Shown here: piece by piece, positions 16,234-49,800 of the stretch
Numbering within the stretch: the stretch's first letter is position 1
How the letters are laid out: the number at the start of each line of letters is the position of its first letter
NCBI GenBank assembly: GCA_964016885.1
Contig: OZ024747.1
Coordinates: 36,022,001 to 36,086,000, forward strand
Length of the DNA stretch: 64,000 nt
Reading direction: 5' to 3'
Source of the DNA: Eledone cirrhosa
Taxonomy: Eukaryota
The notes under the pieces: generated by a model
What the model saw: the letters and a program-made list of their open reading frames with translations, nothing else
Told to the model about the DNA's origin: nothing
Databases searched by the model: none
Position numbers and translations under genes: made by a program

Positions 16234-16237
<4 letters not shown>

Positions 16238-16870
16238 AGTGTAATTTTCTACACAAAACGAAGGTTATAGAGAAAATTGAGGTTGGTAATGGCACATGGA
16301 ATATATAAGAGACAGAATACTTTTTTGTGAAAAAACATAATTTTATAAGGTAAGGAAATAATAAAGGGTATAAAAAATGACCGGTTTCGATGGGTCTGCA
16401 AAAGCCATCTTTTCAAATGTTGATTAATATTAAGAAAAATTAATAATACGAAGAGTTAAAACTTGAGATTTGAAAATTCAAGTATAAAATTCATTGTGGG
16501 ATTTCATAGCAGTTTTCATCTAGGTAGCAACAACAGGTTGACTGCTGTGTCCCTTTCTGTGTCCCTTTCTGCTGTGTCCCTTTCACTACCAGAAAGGGAC
16601 ACAGCAGTCAACCTGTTGCTGCTACCTAGATGAAAACTGCTATGAAATCCCACAATGAATTTTATACTTGAATTTTCAAATCTCAAGTTTTAACTCTTCG
16701 TATTATTAATTTTTCTTAATATTAATCAACATTTGAAAAGATGGCTTTTGCAGACCCATCGAAACCGGTCATTTTTTATACCCTTTATTATTTCCTTACC
16801 TTATAAAATTATGTTTTTTCACAAAAAAGTATTCTGTCTCTTATATATTCCATGTGCCATTACCAACCTC
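16234..16870. mobile_element. Near-perfect palindromic PLE 3'-end insertion with TTGAAAA-core HHR (~16728-16775; mirror ~16376-16420)
   Basis: Arms ~16277-16585 and ~16591-16870; at-TTGAAAA-gatgg...ccatc-GAAA-ccgg-TC-at; left terminus resembles 5228-5270; centre has reiterated ctgtgtccctttc. Confidence 0.8.
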
Positions 16871-18463
16871 TTTCTCAAGGTACGTGGACGATATCCTCAT
16901 CCTCACATCTTCCTAAGACACGGCGAACAGAATCTATGAGACGTTCAACAACACGGACGAGAACATTGACTTCAGTGTTGAACACCCCAACGAAGACGGG
17001 TCACTTGCCCTCCTCGACTTCCGAATCAACATCACGGAACAGGGAAGGATCCACTGCAACTTCTACCGAAAGGCACCTGTTCGTTCACTACAAGTCCGCC
17101 CTCCCTAACAGTGCCAAAAGAGGATACATCACGAACGAGATCGCGCGAATCAAAAACAGATGCAGCGATCCCGCGAGTGGTGTCACTCATACCAAGCGTT
17201 TCCTGGAGGTGCTGGAGACGAACGGGTACCCTACCTCGATCACAGACAGAATAGGAGACACCAGACACAAGAGAGAGAGAGAGGCACCCAAGGCAAGTGC
17301 TTCCTTAAAATTCCACATCTGGGCGAGAATACCACCAAAGCTATCCGCAAGGCTATACGGAGGGAGGGCCTCCACATCCACCTGGCCCACTCGGGCCCCT
17401 CCCGGCGAAGATGCCTCTCCAAGAAACCCGGGAAATCTACTGACGCATGCTCCCTCAGAGACTGCCTGATACGCCATGCGAACTGTTGCCTACGCACATA
17501 CGTCGTGTATAAGATAGAATGTGACAGGTGCAACCAATACTACATAGGTAGCACAATCCGACCTTTGCACATCTGGATCAAGGAACACACTAAAACCAGG
17601 GCCTCGTCTTTCCGGAAACACATAGACAAATGCGGAAACAAAGACGGAAGGCCCATTGTCACAATTCTAGCGACTGAAAGAAACGTCGGCACGTTACGTA
17701 TCAAGGAAGCACTTTTTATCAAACGCCTGCAACCGCAAATAAACAACCGATTAGAGAGAAGCGAAATGAGATGGCTGGTTTAAGTTAACAAACGATGTAG
17801 CAACACACAACACACGCACACACGCACACACAAACGAGACAACTAGACACACACACACACACAGTAGCATTCCACCATACGAACATACTACACTGCCAAT
17901 ACAGAGGAACAAGGCAACTACACACGCACACACACACACACTCAAGCGAACAACAACACACGCACACACACACAGTAACATTTAACAAACAGGCAGAGAA
18001 TGGACTGACAGCTAGCGCCACCCCAATCCCTCATTCGGCCGCTGACCTCTGCTCGACCGACCCCATTTCACGCGCACGCGCGCTCTGCCGAATACCTCAG
18101 ATATTCAAAACAACAAACAGCGGAGGACGCGTTTCGCAACTGTCCGACAGACAACCATTACCCCGGAAAAAAAAAACCCAGTTGATGGATGTGAATCCGA
18201 AATATATAGGGACTATTAAATCTCTCCCAAGGTAACTCTCTCTTGTGTTGTTATTTTTATTTTATCCTTTATACTCTTCCCTTCTTTCTTCTACACATTT
18301 ACACATCTTTACACACCACGCATCTCAACGTACACCCACTTACATCTCTCTCTCCACCACCGGATCTTGTTACCCGGAGATTTACCATTTGCATTGTCGA
18401 GGCTTCCAAACGACTTAAAGATATTTATTTATTATTCCACAATGCTTCAAGCAAACTTCAATA

Positions 18464-18470
<7 letters not shown>
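16871..18470 (+). mobile_element. 5'-truncated, frameshifted Penelope-like element
   Basis: SRYVDDILIL at the start, LFVHYKSALP, VVYKIECDRCNQYYIGSTIRPLH, LRIKEALFIKRLQPQIN; 3' UTR ends in (TA)n; decayed HHR ~18176-18212 (cc-CAGTTGA-t-ggat-gtga-atcc-GAAA-tata-TA-gg). Confidence 0.85.
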
Positions 18471-21567: not shown

Positions 21568-22313
21568 TAATTAAGTTAAAGTGTACATCTACATATGTAT
21601 ACGGAAGTACTAGTATGCATATAAATACACACATGTATACATATTTACATGTACCGAGTTTTTCACTAGACACTTTACAGTGAGTGTCCAGCTAGTCTGT
21701 ATGTAAACAAACAGACGAACCGGGTTTTAAAGTCATACGAGTTTTCAAGGAAACACACTTCCTCTATTCTCCAGAGAGCCAGACAGGAATATTGGACTAG
21801 TTTCGATGTTATTACATCTCATCAGCAATATATACCCATCTTGTTTTTATCGTTTCCGCTGAACCGGTGCGCACAATGACTTACGTTCTATGCAAATTAG
21901 TCTGCCCACTACTGATTTTCATAGAAAAAGCATATAACGATATGTGCTTTTACAATTCTGCAGATAAGCCGGAAGATGGGTTATTATTGCTGATGAGATG
22001 TAATAACATCGAAACTAGTCCAATATTCCTGTCTGGCTCTCTGGAGAATAGAGGAAGTGTGTTTCCTTGAAAACTCGTATGACTTTAAAACCCGGGTCAT
22101 CTGTTTGTTTACATACAGACTAGCTGGACACTCACTGTAAAGTGTCTAGTGAAAAACTCGGTACATGTACATATGTATACATGTGTGTATTTATATGCAT
22201 ACTAGTACTTCCGTATACATATGTAGATGTACACTTTAACTTAATTGTTTAAGCGTCAGTCATACAAAAGTGAGTTAGAAGCGAAACGAAATTTAATTTC
22301 GTTTCGTTATTTG

Positions 22314-22318
<5 letters not shown>
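21568..22318. mobile_element. Palindromic HHR-bearing insertion in (TA)n
   Basis: Arms ~21568-21842 and ~21972-22246; tail 22247-22318 on the right arm only. Confidence 0.85.
21985..22025 (+). ncRNA. Canonical minimal type I hammerhead ribozyme (mirror ~21790-21830)
   Basis: tattg-CTGATGA-gatgt-aata-acatc-GAAA-ctag-TC-caata; GUC cleavage triplet. Confidence 0.88.
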
Positions 22319-23304: not shown

Positions 23305-23461
23305 ATATATAAACTACTATCTGGTTGTGGAACCAACCAACCAACCAGAAATTTATAAATTTGTAGATTTGTAACTTTATAAATTTATAAATATATAATA
23401 AATTGAAGTGAAAGCAACTGGTGCGTGTGTTTCTTATTGGCAACATGACCGTCCCAAAGTA

Positions 23462-23558
<97 letters not shown>

Positions 23559-23799
23559 TCAGGGAAATGGGAAAACTCGGCGTATGGAAGGTGATAGCAC
23601 AGCAAAATACCGTCGTAGCGGCGTTGGATAAAATATTACCTGGAAGGGCAGAGATCAACGGCTAGATGTGATATTTTACCCAACGCCGCTTCGACGGCAT
23701 TTTGCTGTTCTATCAGCTTCAAGACGCCGAGTTTTCCCATTTCCCTGACAATCCTTATACACTTGCGTCTCAAAAATTTATTTTCGAGTTAATTTGTTT
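23559..23799. mobile_element. Small palindromic insertion in (TA)n
   Basis: Arms ~23559-23638 and ~23668-23748; tail 23749-23799. Confidence 0.75.
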
Positions 23800-23806
23800 A
23801 TATATA

Positions 23807-23896
<90 letters not shown>

Positions 23897-23900
<4 letters not shown>

Positions 23901-25594
23901 TAAACTCCAGAATGACATAAATACATTCCTAAAAAAGCTGCGAACTACCAATGGAATTATTGTCGAAGCGGACAAAACCTCAAATGTGTATACGATGGTT
24001 GTTAATACATACAATAGCTTCATACGGAAAGAATTACATAAGAAATACAACAAATCTAATGAGGCGGCACGGATAAATATCAACGACGAGGCACACAATA
24101 TAGTCAACCACCTAGGAATAGACGACAGAACGGAGCCACTTAGGCCATGCACCACCACATTTAATCTCAAGCACCACAAGGTAAATTTGATTATAACCCC
24201 ACAATTAGACTTATATGCCCGTCCAAATCGGATATCGGGAAAATTAGTAAATATATATTAGACAGAGTGATAGCACAAATGAAGAATAAACTAGTGATTA
24301 AACTATGGGGTAACGCTACCGAAACACTTAAGTGGTTTAACAATATAGCTAACAAAATGTATCTAAATTTATACAATTTGACATTAACGACTATTACTCC
24401 TCTATATCCTCCAACACCTTGGATAAAGCCTTAGCATTCGCCAAAGCCAATTCTGACCTAACAAACGACGAGATAAAATCATATTAGTTGCTAGGAAAAC
24501 AATAATTAAATTTGAAAACGCCTATTGGGAACGTAAGGATAGGTTAAATAACTTTGACATCACGATGGGGGCTAACGACTCAGCTCAAGTCACAGATTTA
24601 GTAGGTATTTACATAGCCCATAGTTTACAGAGTGAGTGTAGCAACCTTCACGGTGGAATCTACAGAGACCACGCCCTTCTCCTAGTTAAGAACTACAAAG
24701 TATACGGTAAATAGAAATATAACATTGAAATCAAACAAGTCACGCAGTAGCAAATATATTTGGTATAACCCCATATTTAACACCTCTATTAGTACTAACC
24801 TACCCTCTACCTTCTTTAGAATAATAAATAAGCACTTTCCAGATTCACACAGATACACTAAATCTATTAGACTCCACGGCACCAAATATAGAGGCACACA
24901 TTAAGATGCTTAACGCTAAAAAGATACATAACAACACCACAACACTAATTTACAACAATAACAATGCAATTACCATTGAACACAACAGAATATCTAATAC
25001 ACAACCATCCACTAATAGGCAAACAAAACGTAACACACTTGTACAGGCATCGCAGCCCACCAATAATGCCAAAGTTGCCCATGACAAGAATTGTAACTGC
25101 CACCTACCTGAAACCTGTCTATTACATAATGAATGTATGCAGTATAACCTGGTTTACCAATGCACAGTGAAATCAGACAACCAGAAATGATATTACATCG
25201 GAGCGACTGGGTATACATTTAAAGCCTGTTATATACACACCGTTACGCAATGAAACATTCCCACATCGTTATGTAATTACCCTTGCAAACAAGACCTGGC
25301 AACTGAGGGAAAGTAAACATCCTGAAGTGGGAAAAATTATCGAACGCGCCCCCATATCGGAGTGGTATGAGAATCTGTCGATTATGTGACATTGAGCTGT
25401 TCCACATTTTGAGTTCGAAGAATAAGTTACTCAACAATAAAATCAAAAGATCAATTTATTGTAACCATAGACTCAAAGAGAAGTTTTCGCACAAGTGCAA
25501 ATCGAACCCATAACCTCTTACTACCAACTGACAAACTGCATATACTTAGACTTTATACCCTCTTGTTGTATCTAAACCCTTTTAATTACCCACA
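23897..25594 (+). pseudogene. Decayed Penelope-like element (YRDD-type family as at 41031)
   Basis: FNLKHHK, QFDINDYYSSIS, FDITMGANDSAQVTDLVG, GGIYRD, WYNP, NCNC...CLL...LVYQC, YIGAT; multiple frameshifts. Confidence 0.82.
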
Positions 25595-29999: not shown

Positions 30000-31754
30000 A
30001 AAATATATAAACATATTTTTATCTATTTTTTTGACACTTAGTATATTAACAAAACATTTCTGAACAACATTCTGAACATAACAAAATATTTCAAAACATT
30101 TCTAAAAGAATTTCTGGATTTTGCTTTTACGCTTGTTTTACTGGCTCTCCTCAGGTTGCAGTGTCCAGCAGTAGTCTCCCATCATGTTGGGGTTGAACCG
30201 ACCCTGATACCTACTCTCCATTATGGCAATGTCGTGGTGAAACCTGTCTCCATGTTCATCACTGATGTCTCCTAGATTACTTGGGAAGAAATCCAGATGA
30301 GAATGGAAGAAATGAAGCTTCAACGTCATTCGTGAACTCAGAGCGCGATAATTTTATATCATGGTTTCAACAATTTCTTTATAGTTGTCTGCACGGTGGT
30401 TTCCAAGAAAGTTCTGTGTCACATCTACAAATGATTTCCATGCATTAGTCTCCAAAGGGTTTAGTGTTTTCGTAAACTCACTATCATTAACCAACATACG
30501 AATCTGAGGACCATTCAAAACCCCTGCTTTTAACTTTGCTTCAGATACCACTCTACACAATTTCTTACACAAGTACTGAAACCTATTACCTGTATGATCC
30601 GTGCTTTTAATAAAGTTTTTGGCCAAGCCTAATTTGAGATGTAATGGAGGGAGGAATACTTTTTCTGGATCCACGAGAGGTTTGTACAGACAGTTGAATC
30701 TACCGGGTGCATCCGTTGGTCTTGTTGGCCAATCCTTCTTCATGTAGTGCTCCGCATCTGCTCTACGATTCCACAAATATAAAAAAAACACATATTCTTT
30801 GTGTAACCAGTCTGAAGACCTAAAAGTAGACTAATTAAGTTGTTTATGACGATGACGAGCGGTTGTAATGCGGACGCCAGGTTCCAACAGGTTTCCTAGC
30901 TCCAGTCTTGATCCCAAGAGCTCAGCCTTTTCTTTAGACAAATGTAGGTCTCTAATGAGATCGTGAAGGGCTTCCTGGTTAAATGGTATGGGTTCACTTG
31001 TCTCATGTTCGTCTTGATAGTCATCATTAATAGGGGTGCTACTAGAATCAGAATCAGAGATTAGCTCGTGTTCAGCAGGTACTGGTCGGATTGCTGAGGA
31101 GATATCGGGGTATTGAAGTGTAGTTCGTGTCTTCACAGCAATTCTGGATGTATATATGGCAGAAGTAGCAATCGTTATTGTGGTCTTTTGGTTCTCGCCA
31201 CACCATTTGTACGGCAAATGGCAAACCAGAGCTTCGTTTCTCATTCTTCCATTCACTTAGATGATTAACACATGACCTACACGCTATATGAGGCGCCCAT
31301 TTCTTGTCCTGGTCTCCTAACGGAGATTTGAAGTAGGATTTGTAGTTTACTCGAACTGCTTTTGTGATTGGTTTGTTTATGTTTTCTGGGGTAAAGAGTC
31401 CACAAATATACCAAAATAGGTCCGGGTCATTTAAACATTTCCGGCGTTCCATCTCTCCCACTAGTAAAAGTTGTTGTGAATCATCCAAGAATAGCTGAGG
31501 ATAGTTACAATTCTGTGATCTGAAACAAAAGCAGTAAGTATAAATTAGTTAACAACTAAATATAGTGGATACAATTGGATGAAGTAATATGAGCCACATA
31601 GCTATGGGTCATAAACATGGATATGCTGGTTCTCGAAAACTAAAGCCGATACAGCTTAACTGTTGTCATATTCAGATTCTGCACATTTGACTACCCTAGA
31701 ATCATACTAAATTATAACAGAAACATGAAATGAATATTTTTTTATTGACCAGTG
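30000..31754 (-). mobile_element. Decayed Chapaev3-like (CMC) DNA transposon
   Basis: CLNDPDLFWYICG, WAPHIACRSC, PFAVQMVWREPKDHNNDCYFC, LIRDLHLSKEKAELLGSRL, LPPLHLKLGL, LKLHFFHSHLDFFPSNLGDISDEHGDRFHHDI; terminus CACTGGTCAATAA (minus strand) at 31754 flanked by TAA; other terminus not found, so the start is approximate. Confidence 0.7.
30138..31488 (-). pseudogene. Frameshifted, internally deleted transposase
   Basis: ORF pieces 31072-31488, 30831-31256, 30354-30791 and 30138-30329. Confidence 0.8.
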
Positions 31755-31799: not shown

Positions 31800-33480
31800 G
31801 AAGTTGAGAATTTCTTATCTATTCACATAAAGGTATGTTTATGGTTAAAACAAGGTTCCTTAAATGTTGATGAAGTCCCCCTATGTAATTTATACAATTT
31901 ATCATAAGTTTTAACGGTGCATTTATACATTAAATTTCGGTCGAGGCATTTATTATCTAACGGGCAAGAGGGATTGCTTTACAATTACAATGTCTTATGT
32001 TATTATTTGATGATATAGCTCTATTATTTAGATGTAAATTGTTACTATTGCTAATGCTATTATCGATAGTATTGTTAGTCCTGGGGGTTATTTCTATTTG
32101 GTTTAATTTGAGATTCCTATAATTCATTTTTGCTATATTTTGGGCTATATTCATAGTTGTTGAGTATGATAGTTAGATAGTACGTCTATTAAATATGTGG
32201 TAATATTTATAGGTTCTAGGAAACATTTATCGAGAGCTCTAAAGAACTGTTGTGCTAAATTGGTGGACAATACCATATTATAGCACGGAATCTGGCTTTT
32301 CTATGTGATTTGTTATTTTTGTTTATATGAGGGTTATTCTGGTTATGAAGTTGATTTATGTTATTATTATGTGAATTAACTCCTTTATGATATGGGTATA
32401 ATTATCCTTACCTATGTAATTACTTTTATTACATTAGCCTGCCCTATAGAGCGCTTCATTGTAGTATTCTGCCTTATTGTCAAATATATCTTTATTAGCG
32501 GAGAGTCTTGAAATTCTGAGTTGAACACTATTGACTATAGCTTTCTTAACATTTTTAGGGTGGATGGAATAGAAGCTAACATAATTCAGGCTTCCATTTA
32601 ACTTATGGAATGAGTAGTATAGGACAGAATTAAGATTTAAGGTAACGTCTATGAAATTAACTATTTTATTTATGTTTTCTATTTCCAGTTTAGGGTCATA
32701 ATTATTAAAGAAGTCAATTATGATTTTCTTTTTTTTTTATTAAGGACACTATTGCTATGGTTATTTACTATAAATAATGCATCATCACATATAAACCACC
32801 GGCATTTTCAGGCAGTTATCTATGTATAGATTTAAGGATGTAAATACCAACGAGGTCTGTAACCAGAGCTGAGTCCGAAGGCCCTGATATATCTGTATGT
32901 TTTGATGCGTAAATTAATGCTTTGTTAAGTAAAGTTGGAGTTATAGAAGAATAATGGTTAGGTATATCCATTTGGATGAATTTAGTGTTATTTATAAATT
33001 TAAGGTTTACAAACCAGTCTATTACTTCATTAGTTCCATTCCAAAGTCTGAGATGTGATTTTAATTTTAAGATCGGTAACATTCTGTCTAGTACGTTTTC
33101 GATTATGATCCCTAAATCCGATTTAGAGGTGTTTATGAGTTTGACAGGTAGATCAGATTCGAAATTGTTTTTGTGATCCTTCATGTTCAGTTTGGGTTGT
33201 CAAGGTGTAAAAGGTTCCGTGTTGCGTTCAATTCATAGTGTGGTGATAAGTCTGAAGGCTTCTTTATTTAAGGTTGAAAGATCTTCCTTGCAAGTTTTTT
33301 TGTAATTTTTCCTAAGCTCTTTCAATATTAAATTGTTATAGTCGTCCTTTTCTATTCCATAGACATTATTTGTTTCATCCGATTTAACAAGGATTTTGTT
33401 TGTTTTCTTCATGTTATCAATTTTATTTTTAAGGCCTTTTAGATAATCCTGGCCTCTGGAAAGATTTTATTTATTTCATG
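31800..33480 (-). pseudogene. Decayed Penelope-like element (same clade as 41031 and 23897)
   Basis: MKDHKNNF..PVKLINTSKSDLG, IQMDIPNHYSSIT, DSALVTDLVGIY, HCNCK. Confidence 0.8.
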
Positions 33481-33519
33481 CCTTTATTTATATTGATTGT
33501 ATATATATATATATATATA

Positions 33520-34002
33520 GTTAAAAGAATAGAGGTGTAACACACAAGTTATTATATATTGGTAAACGGAATAGAAAATGCTGACAAATTGTTCACAGTT
33601 GAAAAATGGTTTAATTAGGAATAAAAGAGTATTAGTGATTGTATGGGTTAGTATTCAGTTGTGGTTTTAAGTTTTTAAGTTTTTACCGGTTGCGCATTTC
33701 TAAATGCTTTTCAAAAATAATTTTGAGATAGAGTGTCCGTGGTGTTTGCTCTGATCAGAGCAAAAATAATTTTGAGATAGAGTGTCCGTGCTGTTTGCTC
33801 AGATCAGAGCAAACAGCACGGACACTCTATCTCGAAATTATTTTTGAAAAGCATTTAGAAATGCGCAACAGGTAAAAACTTAAAAACTTAAAACCACAAC
33901 TGAATACTAACCCATACAATCGCTAATACTCTTTTCTCTTTTATTCCTAATCAAACCATTTTTCAACTGTGAACAATTTGTCAGCATTTTCTATTCCGTT
34001 TA

Positions 34003-34008
<6 letters not shown>
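33520..34008. mobile_element. Palindromic insertion with TTGAAAA-type HHR (~33840-33878)
   Basis: Arms ~33553-33800 and ~33806-34008; ttt-TTGAAAA-gcattt-ag-aaatgc-GCAA-c(c/a)gg-TA-aaaa; ~49 bp tandem duplication near the centre; left tail 33520-33552. Confidence 0.8.
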
Positions 34009-34068
<60 letters not shown>

Positions 34069-34072
34069 TGAG

Positions 34073-34119
34073 ATTCTACAGGACTAGAACTGTTTCATTC
34101 TTTAGAAATCATCAGGAAT
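34073..34119 (-). ncRNA. Canonical hammerhead as a ~55 bp solo insert in (TA)n; related decayed copy at ~53925-53970 (+)
   Basis: attc-CTGATGA-t-ttct-aa-agaa-t-GAAA-cag-ttctagtc-ctg-TA-gaat. Confidence 0.8.
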
Positions 34120-34129
34120 ATATATATAT

Positions 34130-34825
34130 AATTATGATTCGTGCTCTGAAATAGCGATGTATACATGAATACATGTATACATGAAATGTATGTATTTGGC
34201 AATATACCGTATGTTTAATTAAAAATATTTTGAAGAGCTTGCCCTATCATTTTAAAGTAGTGATTCCGTCACTTACTTTGTTCTCTGGCAAAGGAAGGGA
34301 GACGAGCGGACAGATTCTGTTCACACTGTTGGTGTCGCTCACAGCAACGTACTACCTGGAAACAGAATCTGTCAGCTTCTCTCCCTTCCTTTGCTGAAAA
34401 ACGAAGTAAGTGACTTAGTCACTACATTAAAATTATGGCTCAAGATCTTCAACATATTTTTAAGTAAGCATACTGTATATTGCCAAATATACTATACATA
34501 CATTCATGTATACATCGCTATTTCAGAGCACCAATCCTAATCTTTAATTTTTGCTGGACCGGCAACCGATCTCTATAATTATTCCTGATTATTACTGGAA
34601 TTTTATAAGAATCCAGCCTCTATAATTTTCGCCAGAAGCAGGATGTACGTTGCTCTGAGGAACACCAACAGTGTGAAACAGAATCTGTCAGCTTCTCTCC
34701 CTTCCTTTGCCGAAAAAAGAAGTAAGTGAAATAGTAACTACTTTAAAATGATAGCGCAAGGTCTTCAAAATGATTTTTATTAAACAAGCGGTATATTGCC
34801 AAATATACTATACATACATTCATAT
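34130..34825. mobile_element. Retrozyme-like ~317 nt HHR unit: about 1.5 tandem copies (+) plus one inverted partial copy
   Basis: aacagaatctgtcagcttctctccc at ~34361 and ~34677; ~34130-34355 inverted; HHR 34652-34692 gct-CTGAGGA-acac-caaca-gtgt-GAAA-cag-aat-ctg-TC-agc. Confidence 0.78.
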
Positions 34826-34834
34826 ATATATATA

Positions 34835-36045
34835 TCCAAAATTAAATTAGGGGTGTCATGTCCGAGAGACATGCGCCATATCCACTGTAGAATATTCTCA
34901 AAGATTCAAATGAATAGATCTCAAAGATTCAAATGAATAGATCCGAGCCGTTTATATCAACTAGAAATTGATTGACATATATATTAAAAATAAACATATG
35001 AAACAATCACAGGGACGAATTTGTAAAGTGTGTAAGCACACACAGTTACGTAGGTAACTAATTAAAGTTTAACTATAACTTTAAATACAGATACCTTTTA
35101 AAATCAATAATCTTCATTAAAGAAATATATTTCACCATAAATCGATCAGTAAATCGCAGTAGTCAAATCTCGGATTTTAAACAAGGGAGAAGATTTAACT
35201 ATCTGTGTTTACACAGCAAATGCAAATCTGCGAATGACTAGTAGCACGTGTTGCATCTTTTTAAAAATACACACATCATACCAGAGTTATCTCAGTGGCG
35301 TGAATAGGATGATTGACAAATAGAAATAGCAGCCGAGTCCTTTCAACTGAGTTAGCTCTACAATTAAGGGGCCGTATATATATATATATATATCCAAAAT
35401 TAAATTAAGGGTGACATGTCCGAGAGACATGCACCATATCCACTGTAGAATATGCTCAAAGATTCCAATGAATAGATCCAAGCATTTTATATCAACTAGA
35501 AGTTGATTGACACATATATGTATATCTAAAATAAACATATGAAACAATCACAGGGAATAACTTGTAAAGTGTGTAAACACACAAAGCTAGGTAGGTAACT
35601 AATTAAAGTTTAACTAGAGCACTTTAATATAAAGATACCTTTTAAAATGATTAATCTTCCTCATATATATTTCATTAAAGAAACATCAATCGATCGGTAA
35701 ATCACAGTAGTCAAATACGGATTTTCAACATAGGAGAAGATTTCAATATCAGTGTTTACACAGCAAATGCAAACACAGATAGTTAAATCTTCTCCCTTGT
35801 TAAAAATCCGAGAATTGACTACTGTGATTTACCGATCGATTGATGGTGAAATATATTTCTTTAATGAAATATATATAAGGAAGATTAATCATTTTAAAAG
35901 GTATCTACATCTAAAGGTCTAGTTTAACTGTAATTAGTTATCTACCTAACTGTGTGTACTTACACACATTACACATTTTCCCCTGTCATAGTTCCATGTG
36001 TTTATTTTATATTTAGATATATGTCAATCAATTTCCAGATGATAT
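34835..36045. repeat. ~558 bp tandem unit (2 copies) followed by an inverted partial copy
   Basis: ~34835-35230 matches ~35393-35772; ~35772-36040 is the reverse complement; bounded by (TA)n; no clear HHR. Confidence 0.75.
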
Positions 36046-36059
36046 ATATATATATATAT

Positions 36060-36886
36060 GTTAGTTAGCACCCCGAACACATAATTAGGAATATAATCAC
36101 TTATTTCCTAATGTTTGTTGAGTGAGTTGGAATTTGGCCGGAGTATCGCTAAAAAGCTTTCTCCGATATTGCATTTATTTACTTACTCTTGGCGCAGCAG
36201 ATTTGAAAAAAATTCTCGGTATAAGGTTAGCATTTCTTTGTTTATTTTTTATATATGAATATTGATTGTTCCTCATATCTCATTCTGTTATTTTGCCCGA
36301 GAAAATATCTGTGTGTGTCATCAAATGTTGTACACACATAGATATTTTTTTCAATTTACAATTGAGTTCTTAGCACGTGGCCTGAATTCCTTTCAGAGTT
36401 CATTGTCACGCGCTTGTATTGTTTTTTTTTTTGGCGGTAATTCACTTCCTCATTTTTTTAATCAGTTCGAACACTTCTTTCAGAACTGCTGGACTGGCAA
36501 CCTGACAGATACCTCAGGCACAGAAAGTGATTATCGCTAAATGCTGATGTTGGTTAGATTATCAATATTAGTATTATTGGGGCACCCACTGATGAATTAT
36601 AGGAGCCCACTTGAATATATATCTAGTGATGGTATACAAGCTCCTACATAAATTGATATAATTTCACCCAAATTGTAGGAATCCTATAAAGAAACGAGAC
36701 GTCCGTCTGGGAAGAGATATATTAGATATGTCTCATTTGAAATAATACAGCCAATTTTCCACGCAATACTTTTAGTTAGCACCCCGAACACATAATTGGG
36801 AATATAATCACTTATTTCCTAATGTTTGTTGAGTGAGTTGGAATTTGGCCGGAGTATCGCTAAAAAACTTTCTCCGATATTGTATT

Positions 36887-36890
<4 letters not shown>
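36060..36890. repeat. ~118 bp direct repeats flanking ~590 bp, between (TA)n tracts
   Basis: ttagttagcaccccgaacacataatt...ctccgatattg at 36061 and 36773. Confidence 0.7.
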
Positions 36891-37032: not shown

Positions 37033-37151
<119 letters not shown>

Positions 37152-38312
37152 GATAAATCTACCAAGAGTTTACGGTAGTGTCCAATCCGTATGAAGAACT
37201 CAATGTATTCCGGATATCATGGAAAGAAGAGATGTAATGAAAATCCACTTTCGGTGAAAGATAAACGGTATACAGAGTCAAGATAAAATATTAAGCAAAT
37301 AATGAATAAACAATTCCTTATATTAAACAAAAAAAGTTCATTATTTAACGATCGTTTCTAGGGTATATATGTGTTATAATTGGTATGCATATTCAACAGA
37401 TCTATGTACAAAATTATACAAAATTATACAAATTATCAAGATTAAATATACATACCTAACACATATATACGCCGTCTTCAGAAATAATGAAGTATATTTA
37501 TTGATAATAACAACAATTCAAAATATCAGTTCAAAATTGACCAATGAAAACACAAAGGGTCAAAAGCAGTTCGGTGTGTGTATATACATGTAAAATCCTT
37601 ACACATATTTTACAATAATGTGTGTATAATTTGTATGCGCATACTAAAAAGATGGATGCAAACACAAAATTTCAAGGTTAATATCTCTGTAAGCTTAATG
37701 CGCTGATAAGATGCGCATTGATACTTATGGAGTCAAGCATATAAATATATTTTTTCATACTCACACATATCAGTATAATCACACATACATGCGCGTATAT
37801 GCATAAATATACACATAACCACGAACATACAAACACACACACACACCCCCACTCACATTTATATATGTGGATATAAAATCATAAGCACATAGAAATTAAG
37901 TCACTCACATAAAACACTGGCACACACATTTCAAGATCAAGATACGGAAATTAGGTGGGAGGGGGGGGAGGGGTCAGTATTCAATTGTCTGAGCAGACTG
38001 CCTAATATAAATGTATCTATAAATTAAGAAAAATAAAAAAATAAAAACAATAAAATATAATAAATAGAATATAATGTACATACACATACAGATATATATA
38101 CACATACATACATGTACGCGCACATAGAGATATTTACGCATACACACATACACACATACATATACAGTCATATACACACATACACTTACACGAACATACA
38201 CATACACATATAAAAAGATATATATATACACACACACACGCGCAACACATACACACATACACATATATATAAAAAATAGATAATAAAGATATATATCCAT
38301 ATATATATATAT

Positions 38313-38363
<51 letters not shown>

Positions 38364-38454
38364 CATATACACATACATACACATACATCTAAATATACAT
38401 ACACATACATACACACATACATGTACATACATGTACATACATATACGCACATCG

Positions 38455-38502
<48 letters not shown>

Positions 38503-38826
38503 TCACATAGACATAAAGATACATACACACACAACTTACATACACACGTATATATATATATATATAGATGTACCTTCATACATAGAATTAGATATATAAT
38601 CATACATACATATGCACCTACTTATACTCATATAAATAAATACATACGCTTCCATATATGTGTATATACATAAAAAACAATACAACCTCACCAAACTCAG
38701 ACATACAAATGAAAATAATAATAAAAAGGCATATGTATATACATACACACACGCATTAATAGAGATATATATATATATATACACACACACATACACATAT
38801 ATATATACATACACACACACATATAT

Positions 38827-38874
<48 letters not shown>

Positions 38875-38887
38875 GCACACACATAGA

Positions 38888-38924
<37 letters not shown>

Positions 38925-39265
38925 ATATATATCCACACACTCATACCACCATAAATACACATACAAACACCCACATGTATATATATATATATATATATAT
39001 ATATTTCATTACTCTTATATATACACATATTATATATACATACACAACCTCACTTATACACATATACACATAAGTTATATTACAATAATAATAAAGAATA
39101 ATATACATATATATATATACATATACATATATATATATATATATATATACATACATACATACACATACATACATACACATAAATATATACATACATAAAT
39201 ACACACATACGAATAAAGACATATATTCACACATAGACACCTATATATATATATATATATATATC

Positions 39266-39316
<51 letters not shown>

Positions 39317-40459
39317 ACACACACACACACAGACACACATACACACTCACATATATATATATATATATATATGTGTATGTGAGTGTGCGCACATACACAT
39401 ATATACACACACACATACAAACACACACAAACACATACATATGCATACGTGCACACACACACACATATATCACATAGATACGAAGATAAACATATAAATA
39501 GAGAGACATACATATATATACACAACACACATACACATACATACATACACGCATATACATATACATACATATATACACGTATATATATTCCTATATATAC
39601 AAGCATACACATACATACACATATATACACATACATACACATATACATACAACACATTCACATACACATACATATATAATACATATATATACATATATAT
39701 ACATACATATGTATGTACAATCATATATACACACACAATCTTACATTCATATTTGCATGCTCATATATGTATTTTTATATTTAGATATAAATACCCAAAC
39801 CTATATAGACACCTACCTACATATATATTCATACATAGACGCTTACAAATACAGATGATAATAGTATGGGGGAAAGGGGGGGTTTGGAGAAGGGGATCAA
39901 AGTAAATATATGTTTCAAGAAACATATAATATTTTCCGTATCTTAATTCAATGTATGTTCTTACATATTTTCAGTGCTAGGAAATACGAAATCTATGCAT
40001 CTCAAAATAAATAAGTATACCATTAATCATATGTTAACTAAACCAAAGATAGTCAACATATTGATTTCTAAGGTGTAAATTAGTTAGGTTTATAATATTT
40101 GAAGCAGAATTTTGAAGTCAAACAGTAGTAGATTATTAATTACATTATAACTAAATTAAAGTTAATAACGTTATGGTATCAATATTAGGAGATGAATTTA
40201 GTAATAGGGAAAAGAAACCCAAATAAAAATAAAATAAAATATTACATCGGTAGTAACATATAAATTATATGTTAACTAAATTAAAAATTATATATTTATT
40301 TCAATAGTATACGTTAATTAGTATATGTTAATTAGGTATACAATACATAAAGCAGATATTGTATTTCATCAATAGCATAATATAATTATATGCAAATAGA
40401 AATCAAAATTAATACGCATACATATACATATACATATACATACACATATACATACATAT

Positions 40460-40502
<43 letters not shown>

Positions 40503-41030
40503 TATATACACACATATACATACATACAGATACACATACACAACACACACATATACATATACATATACATATACATATCTTTTTCAAAAAATTGCACAGA
40601 ATATATTAGGTATATATCCAAAACACATCCCATTCTATGATTACATGACATTCTGCAATTCGTCTGTATAAGGATACTAATTTTAAGCAAATTAAAATAA
40701 AAGTTTTAGGTTGATTAAAACTAAAACCAAATAATAAATATATTTCCAAAATGTATATTAATTAGGTCTATAATACTAAAAATTCTTTCTCCGTCATTGG
40801 ATACATGATATTATTTTGTTATATTTTATCTGTAAAAGAATTATAATAAAAGGTTTAAATAAATTAAAATTAATCTATAAATTAAATTACTAAGTATATA
40901 TTAGTAATATTTAAAGGTTTTTCACAATTTATGATTACATAATATTTTCTCATCTGTAATAAAATATTAATTAAATTAAATTTATAGGTTAACTAACATT
41001 TAAATTAAATTAATTTCTAGAATAATGTTA

Positions 41031-43009
41031 TTAATTAGGTTTATAATATTTAAATGTTTTTTTTAATTTATGATTACACGATATAATTAATTCCTGTCGT
41101 TTATTTAATAAGATATCCTTAGACTTCATTATTTCAAATAGTTCTTGGGAACATAATCTACATTCCTTTCTATTATTTTGATAAGGGGTGGCTCTTTTGA
41201 GCACACTCCAGGTCAAATCATATTTTATATTCTTATTTTTATAACTATTGATTTTTTCTGCTAGAGATGTTGTATTAGCCAGTGCGGCATTTTTAAAACT
41301 ATGTTTGTGGGTATTAAACCTTGTCTTAAAATTGTTAGAGGTAGCTCCTATATATGAGCAAATAGAATCTTTAGTTTTAACATTACATTTATAGACTATG
41401 TTGTTAACAAGACAATTCCCTTTTAATGGGCAGTTTGTTTTGTTTCTACAGTTACATCCTTTCGTTAATTCTGTATTTGAGGAGATATTATTGTTAATTT
41501 GATGTACTGGTGGTATACTTATGGTTTTCTTACATTTATATGCATTATATGCACTTATATTTTGTTTTATGTTATTTGTTGTAGAGTATGAGAATTTAAC
41601 TGTAGACCTATTTAAGATTTGATGGTATTTGTGGTTTGGCGGGAAGTTTTTCTCAAGGATATAAAAAAATTTTTTAGCAATATTATCCTTAACTTGTAAA
41701 TTAAAAGGAGCATTATACCAAGTAACTCGTCTATTACGGTTTCTATGTTGTTTATTATTTTTATTATTTTTATAGGTTGTATCATGATTTTTACTAGGAG
41801 GATTAATGTTAATGATCTCACCACAACTATTTTTAGTTATATTTGTAGATTTAGGTGTTTTATCTTTTTTATTAGGAGTTTTATTATTAATATTTATTAT
41901 AGTTGTATGATGAGTAGTTTTTTGAGGGTTACTATACTTTATATTAGAAGATTTAGTATTTTGGGGTATATTGTGGGTGGCATTTAGGTATGTACTTTTC
42001 ATTTGGTGTTTGTTGGTAATATTATGCTGTATGCTTTCAGTATTTTTAGTAGAAGGTATATACTCTAATCTATTTTTGTGGCCACTTCTATCTAGAGCTT
42101 CATTATAAAAGGTCGCATTTTTATCAAATACATCTTGGTTAGAAGAAAGGTTAGAAATTCTAAGTGATATATTATATGCAAGGTTTTTAAGGATAGATTT
42201 AGGGTGATTAGATTGTGAGTGTATGTAATGTAAGTTTTGGTTAGGTTTATGGTAAGGTTGGTATATACCCGTAGCTAAATCTAAAGTTATATCTAGGAAA
42301 TTTACTACTTTACTTGTTTTTTCAAAAGTAATATTAAGATTATAATAGTCTTTAAGGAAAGTTCTAATATGTTTTTTGTTTCTTTCGATTTCTGAAAGGC
42401 TAAGGTTGTTAGAAAGAAGAAGACAGTCATCACGATATAAACCACCTTTGAGGTGGGGAAAAGAGGCATTTATGTTGAAAAGGAGAAAGAGGCCCACAAG
42501 ATCAGTAATTTGGGCGGAATCGCTTGAACCCATAGTAATATCAAAAAGATTACTGTATGTGTTTCTGGTCCAGTATTCATTCTGAAATTCAATAAGTGTT
42601 AGTCTAGCATGTGTAATAATGTTAATGTCATCCGAAGTTAAATTAGATCTATTTTTAGCAAATATTAATGCTTTGTTCAGGAGTATGGGTGATATAGAAG
42701 AATAGTAATTATCTATATCAAATTGTAGGAAAGAAGCAGAAGATTTACACCTAATATTTTTAAACCAATTAATTACCTGGGAGGTGTTTTCCCAGAGTGG
42801 TAAAATAACGTATTTTCTTATTTGTGGGATGACTCTATCTAAAATTTTTTTGCTAATTATTCCAATATCTGATTTGGAGGGACATATAAGTCTAATAGAA
42901 GGATTAGAGTTAAAGTTAGATTTGTGATCTTTCAGGTTGAAGTGTGGTCTTTTCAATGCCAAAGGTTCAGTTCTATCTTCAATGTTTAGTTTTTTTACTA
43001 TGTTGTGTG
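41031..43009 (-). CDS. PLE RT plus GIY-YIG endonuclease, open frame, 5'-truncated
   Basis: NLKDHKSNF, RLICPSKSDIG, QFDIDNYYSSI, TMGSSDSAQITDLVG, GGLYRDD, VNFLDITLDL, YIHSQSNHP, N/K/T-rich insert, WYNAPF, CNCRNKTNCPLKGNCL, IVYKC...YIGATSNNFKTRFNTH, CRLCSQE. Confidence 0.92.
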
Positions 43010-43158
43010 AGAAAGAAGAAGACAGTCATCACGATATAAACCACCTTTGAGGTGGGGAAAAGAGGCATTTATGTTGAAAAGGAGAAAAAGGCCCACAAGA
43101 TCAGTAATTTGGGCGGAATCGCTTGAACCCATAGTAATATCAAAAAGATTACTGTATG

Positions 43159-44692
43159 AAACACATACAGTAATCTTTTTGATATTACTATGGGTTCAAG
43201 CGATTCCGCCCAAATTACTGATCTTGTGGGCCTTTTTCTCCTTTTCAACATAAATGCCTCTTTTCCCCACCTCAAAGGTGGTTTATATCGTGATGACTGT
43301 CTTCTTCTTTCTAACAACCTTAGCCTTTCAGAAATCGAAAGAAACAAAAAACATATTAGAACTTTCCTTAAAGACTATTATAATCTTAATATTACTTTTG
43401 AAAAAACAAGTAAAGTAGTAAATTTCCTAGATATAACTTTAGATTTAGCTACGGGTATATACCAACCTTACCATAAACCTAACCAAAACTTACATTACAT
43501 ACACTCACAATCTAATCACCCTAAATCTATCCTTAAAAACCTTGCATATAATATATCACTTAGAATTTCTAACCTTTCTTCTAACCAAGATGTATTTGAT
43601 AAAAATGCGACCTTTTATAATGAAGCTCTAGATAGAAGTGGCCACAAAAATAGATTAGAGTATATACCTTCTACTAAAAATACTGAAAGCATACAGCATA
43701 ATATTACCAACAAACACCAAATGAAAAGTACATACCTAAATGCCACCCACAATATACCCCAAAATACTAAATCTTCTAATATAAAGTATAGTAACCCTCA
43801 AAAAACTACTCATCATACAACTATAATAAATATTAATAATAAAACTCCTAATAAAAAAGATAAAACACCTAAATCTACAAATATAACTAAAAATAGTTGT
43901 GGTGAGATCATTAACATTAATCCTCCTAGTAAAAATCATGATACAACCTATAAAAATAATAAAAATAATAAACAACATAGAAACCGTAATAGACGAGTTA
44001 CTTGGTATAATGCTCCTTTTAATTTACAAGTTAAGGATAATATTGCTAAAAAATTTTTTTATATCCTTGAGAAAAACTTCCCGCCAAACCACAAATACCA
44101 TCAAATCTTAAATAGGTCTACAGTTAAATTCTCATACTCTACAACAAATAACATAAAACAAAATATAAGTGCATATAATGCATATAAATGTAAGAAAACC
44201 ATAAGTATACCACCAGTACATCAAATTAACAATAATATCTCCTCAAATACAGAATTAACGAAAGGATGTAACTGTAGAAACAAAACAAACTGCCCATTAA
44301 AAGGGAATTGTCTTGTTAACAACATAGTCTATAAATGTAATGTTAAAACTAAAGATTCTATTTGCTCATATATAGGAGCTACCTCTAACAATTTTAAGAC
44401 AAGGTTTAATACCCACAAACATAGTTTTAAAAATGCCGCACTGGCTAATACAACATCTCTAGCAGAAAAAATCAATAGTTATAAAAATAAGAATATAAAA
44501 TATGATTTGACCTGGAGTGTGCTCAAAAGAGCCACCCCTTATCAAAATAATAGAAAGGAATGTAGATTATGTTCCCAAGAACTATTTGAAATAATGAAGT
44601 CTAAGGATATCTTATTAAATAAACGACAGGAATTAATTATATCGTGTAATCATAAATTAAAAAAAACATTTAAATATTATAAACCTAATTAA
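43159..44692 (+). CDS. Mirror PLE RT C-terminal half plus GIY-YIG
   Basis: Track protein matches the last 500 aa of 41031-42962. Confidence 0.92.
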
Positions 44693-45220
44693 TAACATTA
44701 TTCTAGAAATTAATTTAATTTAAATGTTAGTTAACCTATAAATTTAATTTAATTAATATTTTATTACAGATGAGAAAATATTATGTAATCATAAATTGTG
44801 AAAAACCTTTAAATATTACTAATATATACTTAGTAATTTAATTTATAGATTAATTTTAATTTATTTAAACCTTTTATTATAATTCTTTTACAGATAAAAT
44901 ATAACAAAATAATATCATGTATCCAATGACGGAGAAAGAATTTTTAGTATTATAGACCTAATTAATATACATTTTGGAAATATATTTATTATTTGGTTTT
45001 AGTTTTAATCAACCTAAAACTTTTATTTTAATTTGCTTAAAATTAGTATCCTTATACAGACGAATTGCAGAATGTCATGTAATCATAGAATGGGATGTGT
45101 TTTGGATATATACCTAATATATTCTGTGCAATTTTTTGAAAAAGATATGTATATGTATATGTATATGTATATGTGTGTGTTGTGTATGTGTATCTGTATG
45201 TATGTATATGTGTGTATATA

Positions 45221-45261
<41 letters not shown>

Positions 45262-46408
45262 ATATGTATGTATATGTGTATGTATATGTATATGTATATG
45301 TATGCGTATTAATTTTGATTTCTATTTGCATATAATTATATTATGCTATTGATGAAATACAATATCTGCTTTATGTATTGTATACCTAATTAACATATAC
45401 TAATTAACGTATACTATTGAAATAAATATATAATTTTTAATTTAGTTAACATATAATTTATATGTTACTACCGATGTAATATTTTATTTTATTTTTATTT
45501 GGGTTTCTTTTCCCTATTACTAAATTCATCTCCTAATATTGATACCATAACGTTATTAACTTTAATTTAGTTATAATGTAATTAATAATCTACTACTGTT
45601 TGACTTCAAAATTCTGCTTCAAATATTATAAACCTAACTAATTTACACCTTAGAAATCAATATGTTGACTATCTTTGGTTTAGTTAACATATGATTAATG
45701 GTATACTTATTTATTTTGAGATGCATAGATTTCGTATTTCCTAGCACTGAAAATATGTAAGAACATACATTGAATTAAGATACGGAAAATATTATATGTT
45801 TCTTGAAACATATATTTACTTTGATCCCCTTCTCCAAACCCCCCCTTTCCCCCATACTATTATCATCTGTATTTGTAAGCGTCTATGTATGAATATATAT
45901 GTAGGTAGGTGTCTATATAGGTTTGGGTATTTATATCTAAATATAAAAATACATATATGAGCATGCAAATATGAATGTAAGATTGTGTGTGTATATATGA
46001 TTGTACATACATATGTATGTATATATATGTATATATATGTATTATATATGTATGTGTATGTGAATGTGTTGTATGTATATGTGTATGTATGTGTATATAT
46101 GTGTATGTATGTGTATGCTTGTATATATAGGAATATATATACGTGTATATATGTATGTATATGTATATGCGTGTATGTATGTATGTGTATGTGTGTTGTG
46201 TATATATATGTATGTCTCTCTATTTATATGTTTATCTTCGTATCTATGTGATATATGTGTGTGTGTGTGCACGTATGCATATGTATGTGTTTGTGTGTGT
46301 TTGTATGTGTGTGTGTATATATGTGTATGTGCGCACACTCACATACACATATATATATATATATATATATGTGAGTGTGTATGTGTGTCTGTGTGTGTGT
46401 GTGTGTGT

Positions 46409-46459
<51 letters not shown>

Positions 46460-46893
46460 GATATATATATATATATATATATAGGTGTCTATGTGTGAAT
46501 ATATGTCTTTATTCGTATGTGTGTATTTATGTATGTATATATTTATGTGTATGTATGTATGTGTATGTATGTATGTATATATATATATATATATATATGT
46601 ATATGTATATATATATATGTATATTATTCTTTATTATTATTGTAATATAACTTATGTGTATATGTGTATAAGTGAGGTTGTGTATGTATATATAATATGT
46701 GTATATATAAGAGTAATGAAATATATATATATATATATATGTGCATGTCTGTTTTTTATGTGTGTGTATATATATATATGTATGTATGTATATATATATA
46801 TGTATACGTGTGTGTGTATATGTATATATATATATATATACATGTGGGTGTTTGTATGTGTATTTATGGTGGTATGAGTGTGTGGATATATAT

Positions 46894-46928
<35 letters not shown>

Positions 46929-46941
46929 TCTATGTGTGTGC

Positions 46942-47007
<66 letters not shown>

Positions 47008-47331
47008 ATATATGTGTGTGTGTATGTATATATATATGTGTATGTGTGTGTGTATATATATATATATATCTCTATTAATGCGTGTGTGTATGTATATACA
47101 TATGCCTTTTCATTATTATTTTCATTTGTATGTCTGAGTTTGGTGAGGTTGTATTGTTTTTTATGTATATACACATATATGGAAGCGTATGTATTTATTT
47201 ATATGAGTATAAGTAGGTGCATATGTATGTATGATTATATATCTAATTCTATGTATGAAGGTACATCTATATATATATATATATACGTGTGTATGTAAGT
47301 TGTGTGTGTATGTATCTTTATGTCTATGTGA

Positions 47332-47381
<50 letters not shown>

Positions 47382-47472
47382 CGATGTGCGTATATGTATG
47401 TACATGTATGTACATGTATGTGTGTATGTATGTGTATGTATATTTAGATGTATGTGTATGTATGTGTATATG

Positions 47473-47539
<67 letters not shown>

Positions 47540-48360
47540 ATATATATATATATGGATATATATCTTTATTATCTATTTTTTATATATATGTGTATGTGTG
47601 TATGTGTTGCGCGTGTGTGTGTGTATATATATATCTTTTTATATGTGTATGTGTATGTTCGTGTAAGTGTATGTGTGTATATGACTGTATATGTATGTGT
47701 GTATGTGTGTATGCGTAAATATCTCTATGTGCGCGTACATGTATGTATGTGTATATATATCTGTATGTGTATGTACATTATATTCTATTTATTATATTTT
47801 ATTGTTTTTATTTTTTTATTTTTCTTAATTTATAGATACATTTATATTAGGCAGTCTGCTCAGACAATTGAATACTGACCCCTCCCCCCCCTCCCACCTA
47901 ATTTCTGTATCTTGATCTTGAAATGTGTGTGCCAGTGTTTTATGTGAGTGACTTAATTTCTATGTGCTTATGATTTTATATCCACATATATAAATGTGAG
48001 TGGGGGTGTGTGTGTGTGTTTGTATGTTCGTGGTTATGTGTATATTTATGCATATACGCGCATGTATGTGTGATTATACTGATATGTGTGAGTATGAAAA
48101 AATATATTTATATGCTTGACTCCATAAGTATCAATGCGCATCTTATCAGCGCATTAAGCTTACAGAGATATTAACCTTGAAATTTTGTGTTTGCATCCAT
48201 CTTTTTAGTATGCGCATACAAATTATACACACATTATTGTAAAATATGTGTAAGGATTTTACATGTATATACACACACCGAACTGCTTTTGACCCTTTGT
48301 GTTTTCATTGGTCAATTTTGAACTGATATTTTGAATTGTTGTTATTATCAATAAATATAC

Positions 48361-48515
48361 TTCATTATTTCTGAAGACGGCGTATATATGTGTTAGGTAT
48401 GTATATTTAATCTTGATAATTTGTATAATTTTGTATAATTTTGTACATAGATCTGTTGAATATGCATACCAATTATAACACATATATACCCTAGAAACGA
48501 TCGTTAAATAATGAA
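48361..48515 (+). ncRNA. Hammerhead with long stem II insertion (mirror 37337-37491; diverged copy ~48790-48922, minus strand)
   Basis: ttcattattt-CTGAAGA-c-ggcgtatatatgtgtta...taacacatatataccc-ta-GAAA-cgatcg-TT-aaataatgaa; 10 bp stem I; diverged copy has TA at the cleavage site. Confidence 0.82.
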
Positions 48516-48560
48516 CTTTTTTTGTTTAATATAAGGAATTGTTTATTCATTATTTGCTTA

Positions 48561-48603
<43 letters not shown>

Positions 48604-49300: not shown

Positions 49301-49340
49301 ATATAGATATATATATATATATTTATATATATATATACAT

Positions 49341-49796
49341 ATATTAATTCAAATATTAACAAAATAGATATTCTTGTGATCAATTAAATTTTATTATACA
49401 TATTTCAGAGGTACTGAATTAAATTCAACAGTACGTCCTCATCAGATAAAATAAAATGATACATGACATACCCTGACATGTCAGATGGTTAAGATTTAAT
49501 CAAGATAGTGGTTAACTTATGGGAAAACTCAATAGTTATACCCTAATATTGAGAACATGAGAAAACGGTTGACCGGGTATGTCATGTATCATTTTATTTC
49601 ATCTGATGAGGACGTACTGTTGAACTTAATTCAGTACCTCTGAAATATGTATAATAAAATGTTATTGATCACAAGAATATCTATTTTGTTAATATTTGAA
49701 TTAATATTAAAAACTCTGGAAAATAATTACCGTAGAGTGCTTCCAATCTACTGTAAAACTCATTTTTTGATGTACTCATTGAATTTTGATTATCTC

Positions 49797-49800
<4 letters not shown>
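49341..49800. mobile_element. Palindromic insertion with canonical HHR (49388-49452 minus; 49592-49660 plus)
   Basis: attttat-CTGATGA-ggacgtactg...cagtacctc-t-GAAA-tatgta-TA-ataaaat; arms ~49341-49473 and ~49575-49710; tail 49711-49800. Confidence 0.85.

Follow-up and report, generated by a model that had tools for sequence, protein, structure and literature searches.

We asked what kind of element the short non-coding unit between two (TA)n tracts of Eledone cirrhosa contig OZ024747.1 is, and which machinery inserted it. An earlier note on the window, the whole stretch of 64,000 nucleotides analysed here, had proposed a retrozyme of about 317 nt at 34130-34825, repeated head-to-tail with one hammerhead site per unit, likened to animal retrozymes with minimal hammerheads, and mobilised by Penelope-like elements (PLEs). 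Our analysis makes it likely that the unit is an aged, non-autonomous, ORF-less element of 316-317 nt, of the animal-retrozyme type and derived from a PLE pLTR, which was inserted in trans by the RT and GIY-YIG endonuclease of a PLE.

BLASTN comparison of the locus with itself revealed a direct repeat (34359-34515 and 34675-34831, 87% identity) and an inverted arm (34131-34358) with 79-82% identity to the direct part, the arm and the position inside (TA)n being as previously described (Table 1). The repeat period is 316 nt at this locus, with cut sites at 34373 and 34689; the proposed length of about 317 nt applies to many other copies, which are one base longer. The head-to-tail repeat stood insofar as its join recurs in the family, but the direct part measures 463 nt, or 1.47 units, and two full units are absent. 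TRF reports no tandem repeat for the direct part, and a general repeat search of the window was dominated by microsatellites. No frame is open for at least 60 codons on either strand of 34359-34821 (longest stretch over six frames, 59 codons), in agreement with the non-coding character claimed for the unit, and the RT plus GIY-YIG ORF expected of an autonomous PLE is absent from it. The unit runs from the ribozyme through about 130 nt to the 36-nt tail, and from there through about 100 nt to the next ribozyme.

Arm A begins 51 nt upstream of the cut-site equivalent and finishes with the tail, extending 36 nt further out than segment C. Segment B begins mid-ribozyme, at the GAAA box; its start lies 15 nt upstream of the equivalent of the cut site, which follows 34373, and the first direct unit has the 3' ribozyme half only; the ribozyme of arm A is broken. 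Only one complete hammerhead is present at the locus, and the claim of one site per unit was not borne out. The three arms are 82-87% alike over 149 shared columns; A has 16 private changes, B has 9 and C has 8. The private changes of arm A are mostly transitions (12/16, compared with 5/17 in B and C, p=0.015), a difference in mutation pattern that a single-template event does not predict, and this arm carries a 10-nt insertion; it may have come from a different template molecule or subfamily. Just left of the unit, and outside it, a 51-nt stub between two (TA)n tracts (34067-34117) contains a hammerhead-like core on the minus strand. The stub has an inverted relative (about 90%) at 53928-53984, with an identical helix II stem and a different loop.

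Table 1. Positions of the parts of the locus and of the neighbouring ORF-bearing elements in the window.
Feature	Positions	Strand	Remarks
(TA)n tract, left flank (target)	34118-34130	.	
Arm A, inverted 5'-truncated unit copy, 228 nt	34131-34358	-	head-to-head with direct part
36-nt tail on arm A	34131-34166	-	missing at the right end of the insertion
Broken hammerhead in arm A	34306-34345	-	C3G, G8C, A9G, one A lost from GAAA
Segment B, one full 316-nt period	34359-34674	+	
Possible retained 121-nt spliceosomal intron, GTAAGT ... TTTCAG	34406-34526	+	putative
36-nt tail inside direct part	34506-34541	+	
Head segment, once at this locus	34542-34638	+	joins tail and ribozyme in other copies
Distal helix I, 5' strand	34630-34645	+	pairs with 34697-34712
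Complete type I hammerhead	34652-34692	+	predicted cut after C34689
Segment C, partial second unit, tail-less	34675-34821	+	ends at AT entering (TA)n
(TA)n tract, right flank (target)	34822-34835	.	
ORF-bearing element	5227-8870		GIY-YIG match, E 3.5e-7
ORF-bearing element	13390-16177		weak RT match
ORF-bearing element	16234-18470		no Pfam match
ORF-bearing element	37149-48566		no Pfam match; RT-region similarity to 5227-8870, E 2e-9

A scan for type I hammerheads on both strands of the whole window returned five sites, one of them exactly at 34652-34692, the coordinates that the earlier note had given for an intact ribozyme. This site has a helix I of 3 bp, the core CUGAGGA, a helix II of 4 bp with a 5-nt loop, the GAAA box, a palindromic helix III and a GUC site at the predicted cut. 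No hammerhead match arose in 3,000 dinucleotide shuffles of 34130-34825, and block shuffles of the whole window (n=60) gave 0.03 matches each. Rfam returned no match at gathering score across the window; its 19 weak matches in 33900-35000 include no hammerhead family and are mostly microRNA models on the A/B hairpin or the (TA)n tract. The arm A ribozyme, in which helix I is broken, was missed by the hammerhead scans. Its core has both C3G and G8C, a double swap reported to rescue cleavage partly (PMC11167929).

The term minimal hammerhead turned out not to suit this ribozyme. Minimal hammerheads are described as having little or no helix III, an enlarged helix II and a conserved G10.1-C11.1 (PMC4209133), whereas here helix III can form 4 bp plus a 3-nt loop, and helix II is closed by A-U. 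Helix III is self-complementary, at -10.6 kcal/mol as a duplex; a dimeric ribozyme needs a self-complementary helix III (PMC4209133).

To examine the family, the unit (34500-34835) was compared at 80% likeness with four of nine listed public sequencing runs (X1, X4, X6 and X7), all of them DNA or unlabelled. Matches were found in 3,050 contigs of X1, 13 contigs of X4, one contig of X6 and 2,886 reads of X7. X4 and X6 are labelled as two other organisms and had small word shares; X1 held 27% of the sampled window words, and is therefore unlike the window's own sample. With X7 reads of 150 nt and contigs that break in repeats, none of the listed contigs or reads covers one complete unit, let alone two, and 34807-34835 was skipped as repeat, so that the tail-less end is unscored in the runs.

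Many other copies stop at 34541 and are followed by (TA)n (77 X1 contigs, 423 X7 reads); the 77 X1 contigs have mixed flanks past this base, with an agreement of 0.54. The summed X1 depth was 249,420 at 34536 and 70,707 at 34548-34559, the latter indicating that a substantial part of the copies continues from the tail into the head segment. Single contigs bridge the join of tail and head (X4 record 9, X6 record 16) and that of head and ribozyme (X1 records 2-5, X4 records 12-13), and the join of the 3' part to the tail is bridged by X4 record 10 and by an X1 joint from 34783 to 34509. Because every join of the ring is bridged in other copies, the short 316-nt ring is, as far as these reads and contigs tell, a family trait, and the ORF-less unit is a family of its own and no one-off stump. 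The additional base of many other copies lies behind 34581/34582.

Over 34640-34647, a stretch rich in private changes of this copy, the X1 depth is down to about 900. We read this dip as poor alignment over the private changes, a like dip at 34580 being bridged; a longer form that leaves the unit at 34640-34647 could also exist. A group of 126 X7 reads with few start places leaves the unit at 34639. Piles of X7 read ends at 34599/34602, 34546 and 34779/34781, together with adjacent low-agreement loose ends, were dropped as RAD-library artefacts because they coincide with GAATTC and TTAA sites, which we take to be those of the library enzymes; the GAATTC at the X7 pile is made by the common letter at 34603.

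The other copies also inform on the ribozyme. Its distal helix I forms 11/16 pairs in this copy (best of 25 registers) and 15/16 pairs with the letters held by at least 45% of the X1 depth, the letters common in X1 pairing at four of the five positions that are unpaired here; the family letters yield a long helix with a 6 x 4 internal loop. Among the variants listed, one in 156 X7 reads has the core CUGAUGA and a compensated helix II, ACGC/GCGT instead of ACAC/GTGT. Since distal helix I is completed and helix II changed on both sides in other copies, the ribozyme looks to be under selection in the family and decayed in this copy. The family ribozyme, with its long interrupted helix I, probably cuts multimers into monomers. 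In this copy the predicted hammerhead fold of 34625-34715 is 4.1 kcal/mol less stable than the minimum, none of three cut-outs has it as the minimum, and in the fold of the whole-locus transcript the ribozyme is buried in an A/C duplex. The linear fold of the monomer, taken from this decayed copy, is better than that of 98/100 shuffles (z -2.28). Loss of four helix I pairs, presence of one complete ribozyme and burial in the A/C duplex suggest that this copy is probably inactive. Eight of nine Xenopus retrozyme dimers were uncleaved in vitro (bioRxiv 10.64898/2026.07.22.740005), so a hammerhead motif is no guarantee of activity. A metagenome scan with the core plus helix III returned 25 loci, which were rejected: none (0/25) resembles the element by BLASTN, and with 32-57% GC they look like unrelated coding DNA.

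Insertions of PLEs are described as partial tandems with an inverted 5'-truncated copy, a tail of 30-40 bp at one end and a bias for (TA)n (PMC8557442); a like layout is reported in PMC3846280, where pLTRs also mobilise unrelated DNA in trans. A purified PLE protein was shown to cleave AT-rich DNA on both strands and to extend both, and PLE cDNA starts at two internal RNA sites bounding the tail, with unprocessed RNA as the main template (PMC11167929). The locus carries these marks. The inverted 5'-truncated copy stands head-to-head with a partial tandem, the 36-nt tail is present at the left end and inside the tandem and absent at the right end, and the target is (TA)n, both at the locus and at the family end 34541. 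The case for PLE mobilisation was thus strengthened by the insertion marks, but not by sequence shared with neighbouring PLEs: the unit had none in a comparison with 11 window regions including the four ORF-bearing elements (best E 0.085), and the ends of PLE-type elements within the window offered no partner PLE by similarity.

Following the published PLE mechanism, the endonuclease would open a (TA)n tract, and each of the resulting DNA ends would prime cDNA at one of the two tail-bounding RNA start sites, 34541 for arm A and about 34505/34821 for C plus B; the resulting cDNAs of 228 and 463 nt would be joined head-to-head. The ribozyme cut does not coincide with the end of any arm: A extends 51 nt past it, and C plus B crosses one cut site and stops 15 nt past the second. 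The 463-nt run calls for a template that exceeds one unit in length and in which the ribozyme site is uncut; judged by these arm lengths, a cut linear monomer cannot have been the template. We give somewhat better than an even chance to an uncut multimeric transcript and somewhat less than an even one to a ligated circle, which fit equally given that no arm end lies at the ribozyme cut. The end of segment B at the 3' foot of helix II would be a plausible RT pause.

The neighbouring elements had been described as autonomous PLEs with the same insertion layout as the unit. An inverted 3'-end copy, a one-sided extension and (TA)n on both sides are common to three of the four ORF-bearing elements (extensions of 65, 45 and 137 nt), which bears out the shared layout; none of the neighbouring PLE-type elements examined has a tandem copy of its own end. 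The label autonomous was not supported, for the neighbour ORFs, of 413-694 codons, begin at inversion junctions; the elements are probably 5'-truncated. The Atlas clusters nearest to 37149-48566 carry RT and GIY-YIG in part of their members, and a PDB sequence search with the ORF at 13976-15931 gave one weak RT match (E 0.32). Inverted arms were present in 21/24 stretches between (TA)n tracts, a biased count from stretches hand-picked among BLAST hits. The neighbour arms are 98.4-99.7% alike, compared with 82-87% in the unit. By their sequence, the neighbours are younger than the unit and not its partner, and they illustrate the insertion mechanism.

Several further structures were observed in the window. 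The 3' end of the 13390-16177 element (13390-13700, minus strand) has its parts in the same order as the unit, namely a hammerhead core at 13688, then GTAAGT as a donor, 125 nt ahead of a 45-nt tail. Short stumps related to this 3' end lie at 3295-3650, a hairpin 87-90% like it, and at 23320-23465; identities are 87-90% for 3084-3233 and 78-80% between 3356-3649 and 23320-23465. The element at 37149-48566 is a palindromic PLE-type insertion of 11.4 kb; its arms match at 99.7% over 3.2 kb, and its 3' regions are long and rich in microsatellites. Decayed relatives lie near 23750-24450 and 32000-33500. A second ORF-less hairpin in (TA)n, at 21570-22317, has a complete type I hammerhead in each arm (21985-22025, plus strand; 21789-21831, minus strand), arms 97.8% alike and a 72-nt one-sided extension, and its sequence is unrelated to the 316-nt unit. 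Hammerhead-like cores (CUGANGA ... GAAA with helix II) were also found in the hairpins 4013-4389, 49338-49800 and 61956-63405 and at 23265 and 50311, with a core on each arm in two cases (4207/4285 and 49445/49603); for most of these further cores, helices I and III are not confirmed. The first letters of 10 of 15 one-sided extensions are TAT or ATAT, which keeps the phase of the (TA)n tract at the tail-less end and suggests pairing of 3-4 nt between target and RNA at that start site.

To the right of the unit, adjacent copies (77%) of another ORF-less element occupy 34836-35374 and 35394-36041, the latter copy forms a hairpin, and its 99-nt extension contains an acceptor-like site and then ATG. 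An 830-nt stretch between (TA)n tracts (36060-36889) ends in direct repeats of 118 nt (97.5%), lacks both a long ORF and a hammerhead core, and is a possible ribozyme-free element of pLTR type. Fragments of a Pif1-helicase element (Pfam PF21530), which we presume to be Helitron-like, and of an unassigned transposase-like gene are present at 9335-11850 and 30354-31548.

The unit contains a possible retained intron. Its donor at 34406 is also present in arms A and C (34722), and its acceptor ending at 34526 also in A. With patterns chosen after the sequence was seen, a donor/acceptor pair occurred in 113/5,000 shuffles for a general pattern, 10/5,000 for the exact hexamers and 630/5,000 for the loosest pattern. 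Among 15 tails examined, four have an acceptor-like site, and an upstream donor within 200 nt accompanies it only in this unit. No joint removing the intron (34721 to 34527) was present among the 11 listed, from runs that are DNA or unlabelled and thus silent on splicing. Introns at the pLTR or its boundary are reported for Penelope and Chlamys-3 (PMC8557442). The tail straddles the acceptor, the start sites lying about 21 nt before and 15 nt after the 3' splice site. We consider it rather unlikely that the unit is an intron-bearing retrozyme, which keeps a PLE pLTR intron at 34406-34526, has the unspliced 316-nt RNA (circle or multimer) as its only mobile form, and loses its mobility by splicing. 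If it were, splicing would yield a 195-nt ribozyme-bearing RNA that lacks one start site and most of the tail and would therefore switch mobility off, and the family ends would be a structural record of a PLE enzyme circling an ORF-less circle more than once. The possible intron is accordingly presented as a lead and not as a result.

Other origins of the locus were weighed against insertion in trans by PLE enzymes. That it is the 5'-truncated stump of an autonomous PLE, with the 316-nt unit a tandem UTR or pLTR repeat that never moves alone, seems to us improbable. Hairpin stumps of ORF-bearing PLEs do exist in the window (3295-3650); most single PLE-type hammerheads, including opposite-strand pairs 100-700 bp apart, are ascribed to truncated PLEs (PMC4209133), hammerheads occur in tandem in axolotl PLEs (PMC7229834), and the possible intron and the tail are pLTR features. 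In a stump, however, at least one of the two unit-shortening joins would be private to the locus, whereas both recur in other copies, in runs labelled as three organisms; and among the 17 of 288 loose ends that were listed, no well-supported continuation in X1 leads from the head segment into a common longer sequence.

A satellite-type unit with a PLE as its remote ancestor only, spread by DNA-level events such as unequal crossover, local duplication or fold-back repair, is very improbable. Local amplification of PLE termini is one proposed route to tandem retrozymes (bioRxiv 10.64898/2026.07.22.740005), and the arms are 13-18% apart, so that later rearrangement is conceivable. Against this, 97 nt of B (34542-34638) are found in neither A nor C, and B is therefore no local duplication of them; many copies end at one base, followed by (TA)n with differing flanks, as would be expected of fresh insertions and not of arrays; and a tail on one side only is, according to PMC11167929, peculiar to reverse transcription by PLEs. 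Equally hard to credit are mobilisation of a retrozyme-type unit by another enzyme, such as an RT of LINE/RTE type, and a DNA transposon of MITE kind that targets TA. Superficially, the TA flanks and the inverted ends do look like a Tc1/mariner MITE, but the ends are offset by 36 nt, a partial tandem lies inside, and the same offset layout occurs on neighbours with RT and GIY-YIG domains. LINEs are left open as partners in PMC7229834; the element here has no poly(A) or simple-repeat tail of its own. The MITE and local-duplication readings are ranked low.

Insertion by PLE enzymes, the reading we prefer, bears on a link so far drawn from other evidence. The dependence of animal retrozymes on PLEs was proposed from co-occurrence (PMC7229834) and from pLTR homology in Xenopus (bioRxiv 10.64898/2026.07.22.740005); the latter study also argues that such elements derive from PLE pLTRs and leaves local DNA amplification open, and retrozymes are said to be possibly reliant on PLEs (PMC8969392). 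The family adds a different type of evidence, namely the end structures of PLE insertions, with a tail on one side, an inversion head-to-head and a (TA)n target, here on a hammerhead unit that has no ORF; they are accompanied by a fixed family-wide 3' end and by arm lengths that exclude a cut linear monomer as the template. The in vitro PLE assay already described could draw on this unit for a 316-nt RNA whose start sites are defined. In a search of mainly open-access main texts, we found no retrozyme reported with tail or inversion marks or with an intron. Neither 'tail' nor 'inverted', in the insertion sense, occurs in the main text of PMC7229834 or bioRxiv 10.64898/2026.07.22.740005, and 'ribozyme' has 0 occurrences in the available text of the octopus repeat paper PMC13282606. 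The advance beyond published work is modest, because ORF-less PLE derivatives with head-to-tail copies (PMC8557442) and opposite-strand hammerhead pairs (PMC4209133) are already in print, and this copy is decayed.

Compared with known systems, the unit shares with animal non-LTR retrozymes, reported from coral, mussel and axolotl (PMC7229834) and from vertebrates (bioRxiv 10.64898/2026.07.22.740005), a type I hammerhead per unit, an ORF-less unit within 150-450 bp (316 nt, non-coding), a multi-copy family with head-to-tail joins, co-occurrence with PLEs and a palindromic helix III through which the dimeric ribozyme could form. Unlike these retrozymes, it has 1.47 units, an inverted arm, a one-sided tail in (TA)n, one complete ribozyme and a possible intron. 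Active retrozymes are recognised by two consecutive complete hammerheads (bioRxiv 10.64898/2026.07.22.740005); this copy has one, and is therefore not filed among them. Non-autonomous Chlamys elements such as MRC1 are likewise ORF-less PLE derivatives with pLTRs and head-to-tail multimers, but occur in green algae, are mostly without canonical hammerheads and have partners known by 3'-end similarity (PMC8557442). Minimal hammerheads of PLEs (PMC4209133) share with the unit the short proximal helix I, the palindromic helix III region, the PLE context and opposite-strand pairs a few hundred bp apart, and differ from the unit family, which has a distal helix I of 15-16 bp. EN+ PLEs (PMC8557442, PMC3846280, PMC11167929) differ in having the RT and GIY-YIG ORF, whereas in the unit the stretch after the tail enters no ORF and returns to the ribozyme within about 110 nt. 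With them the unit shares the partial tandem, the head-to-head inverted 5'-truncated copy, the tail of 30-40 bp, the (TA)n target, the hammerhead upstream of the tail and, in putative form, splice signals near the pLTR boundary.
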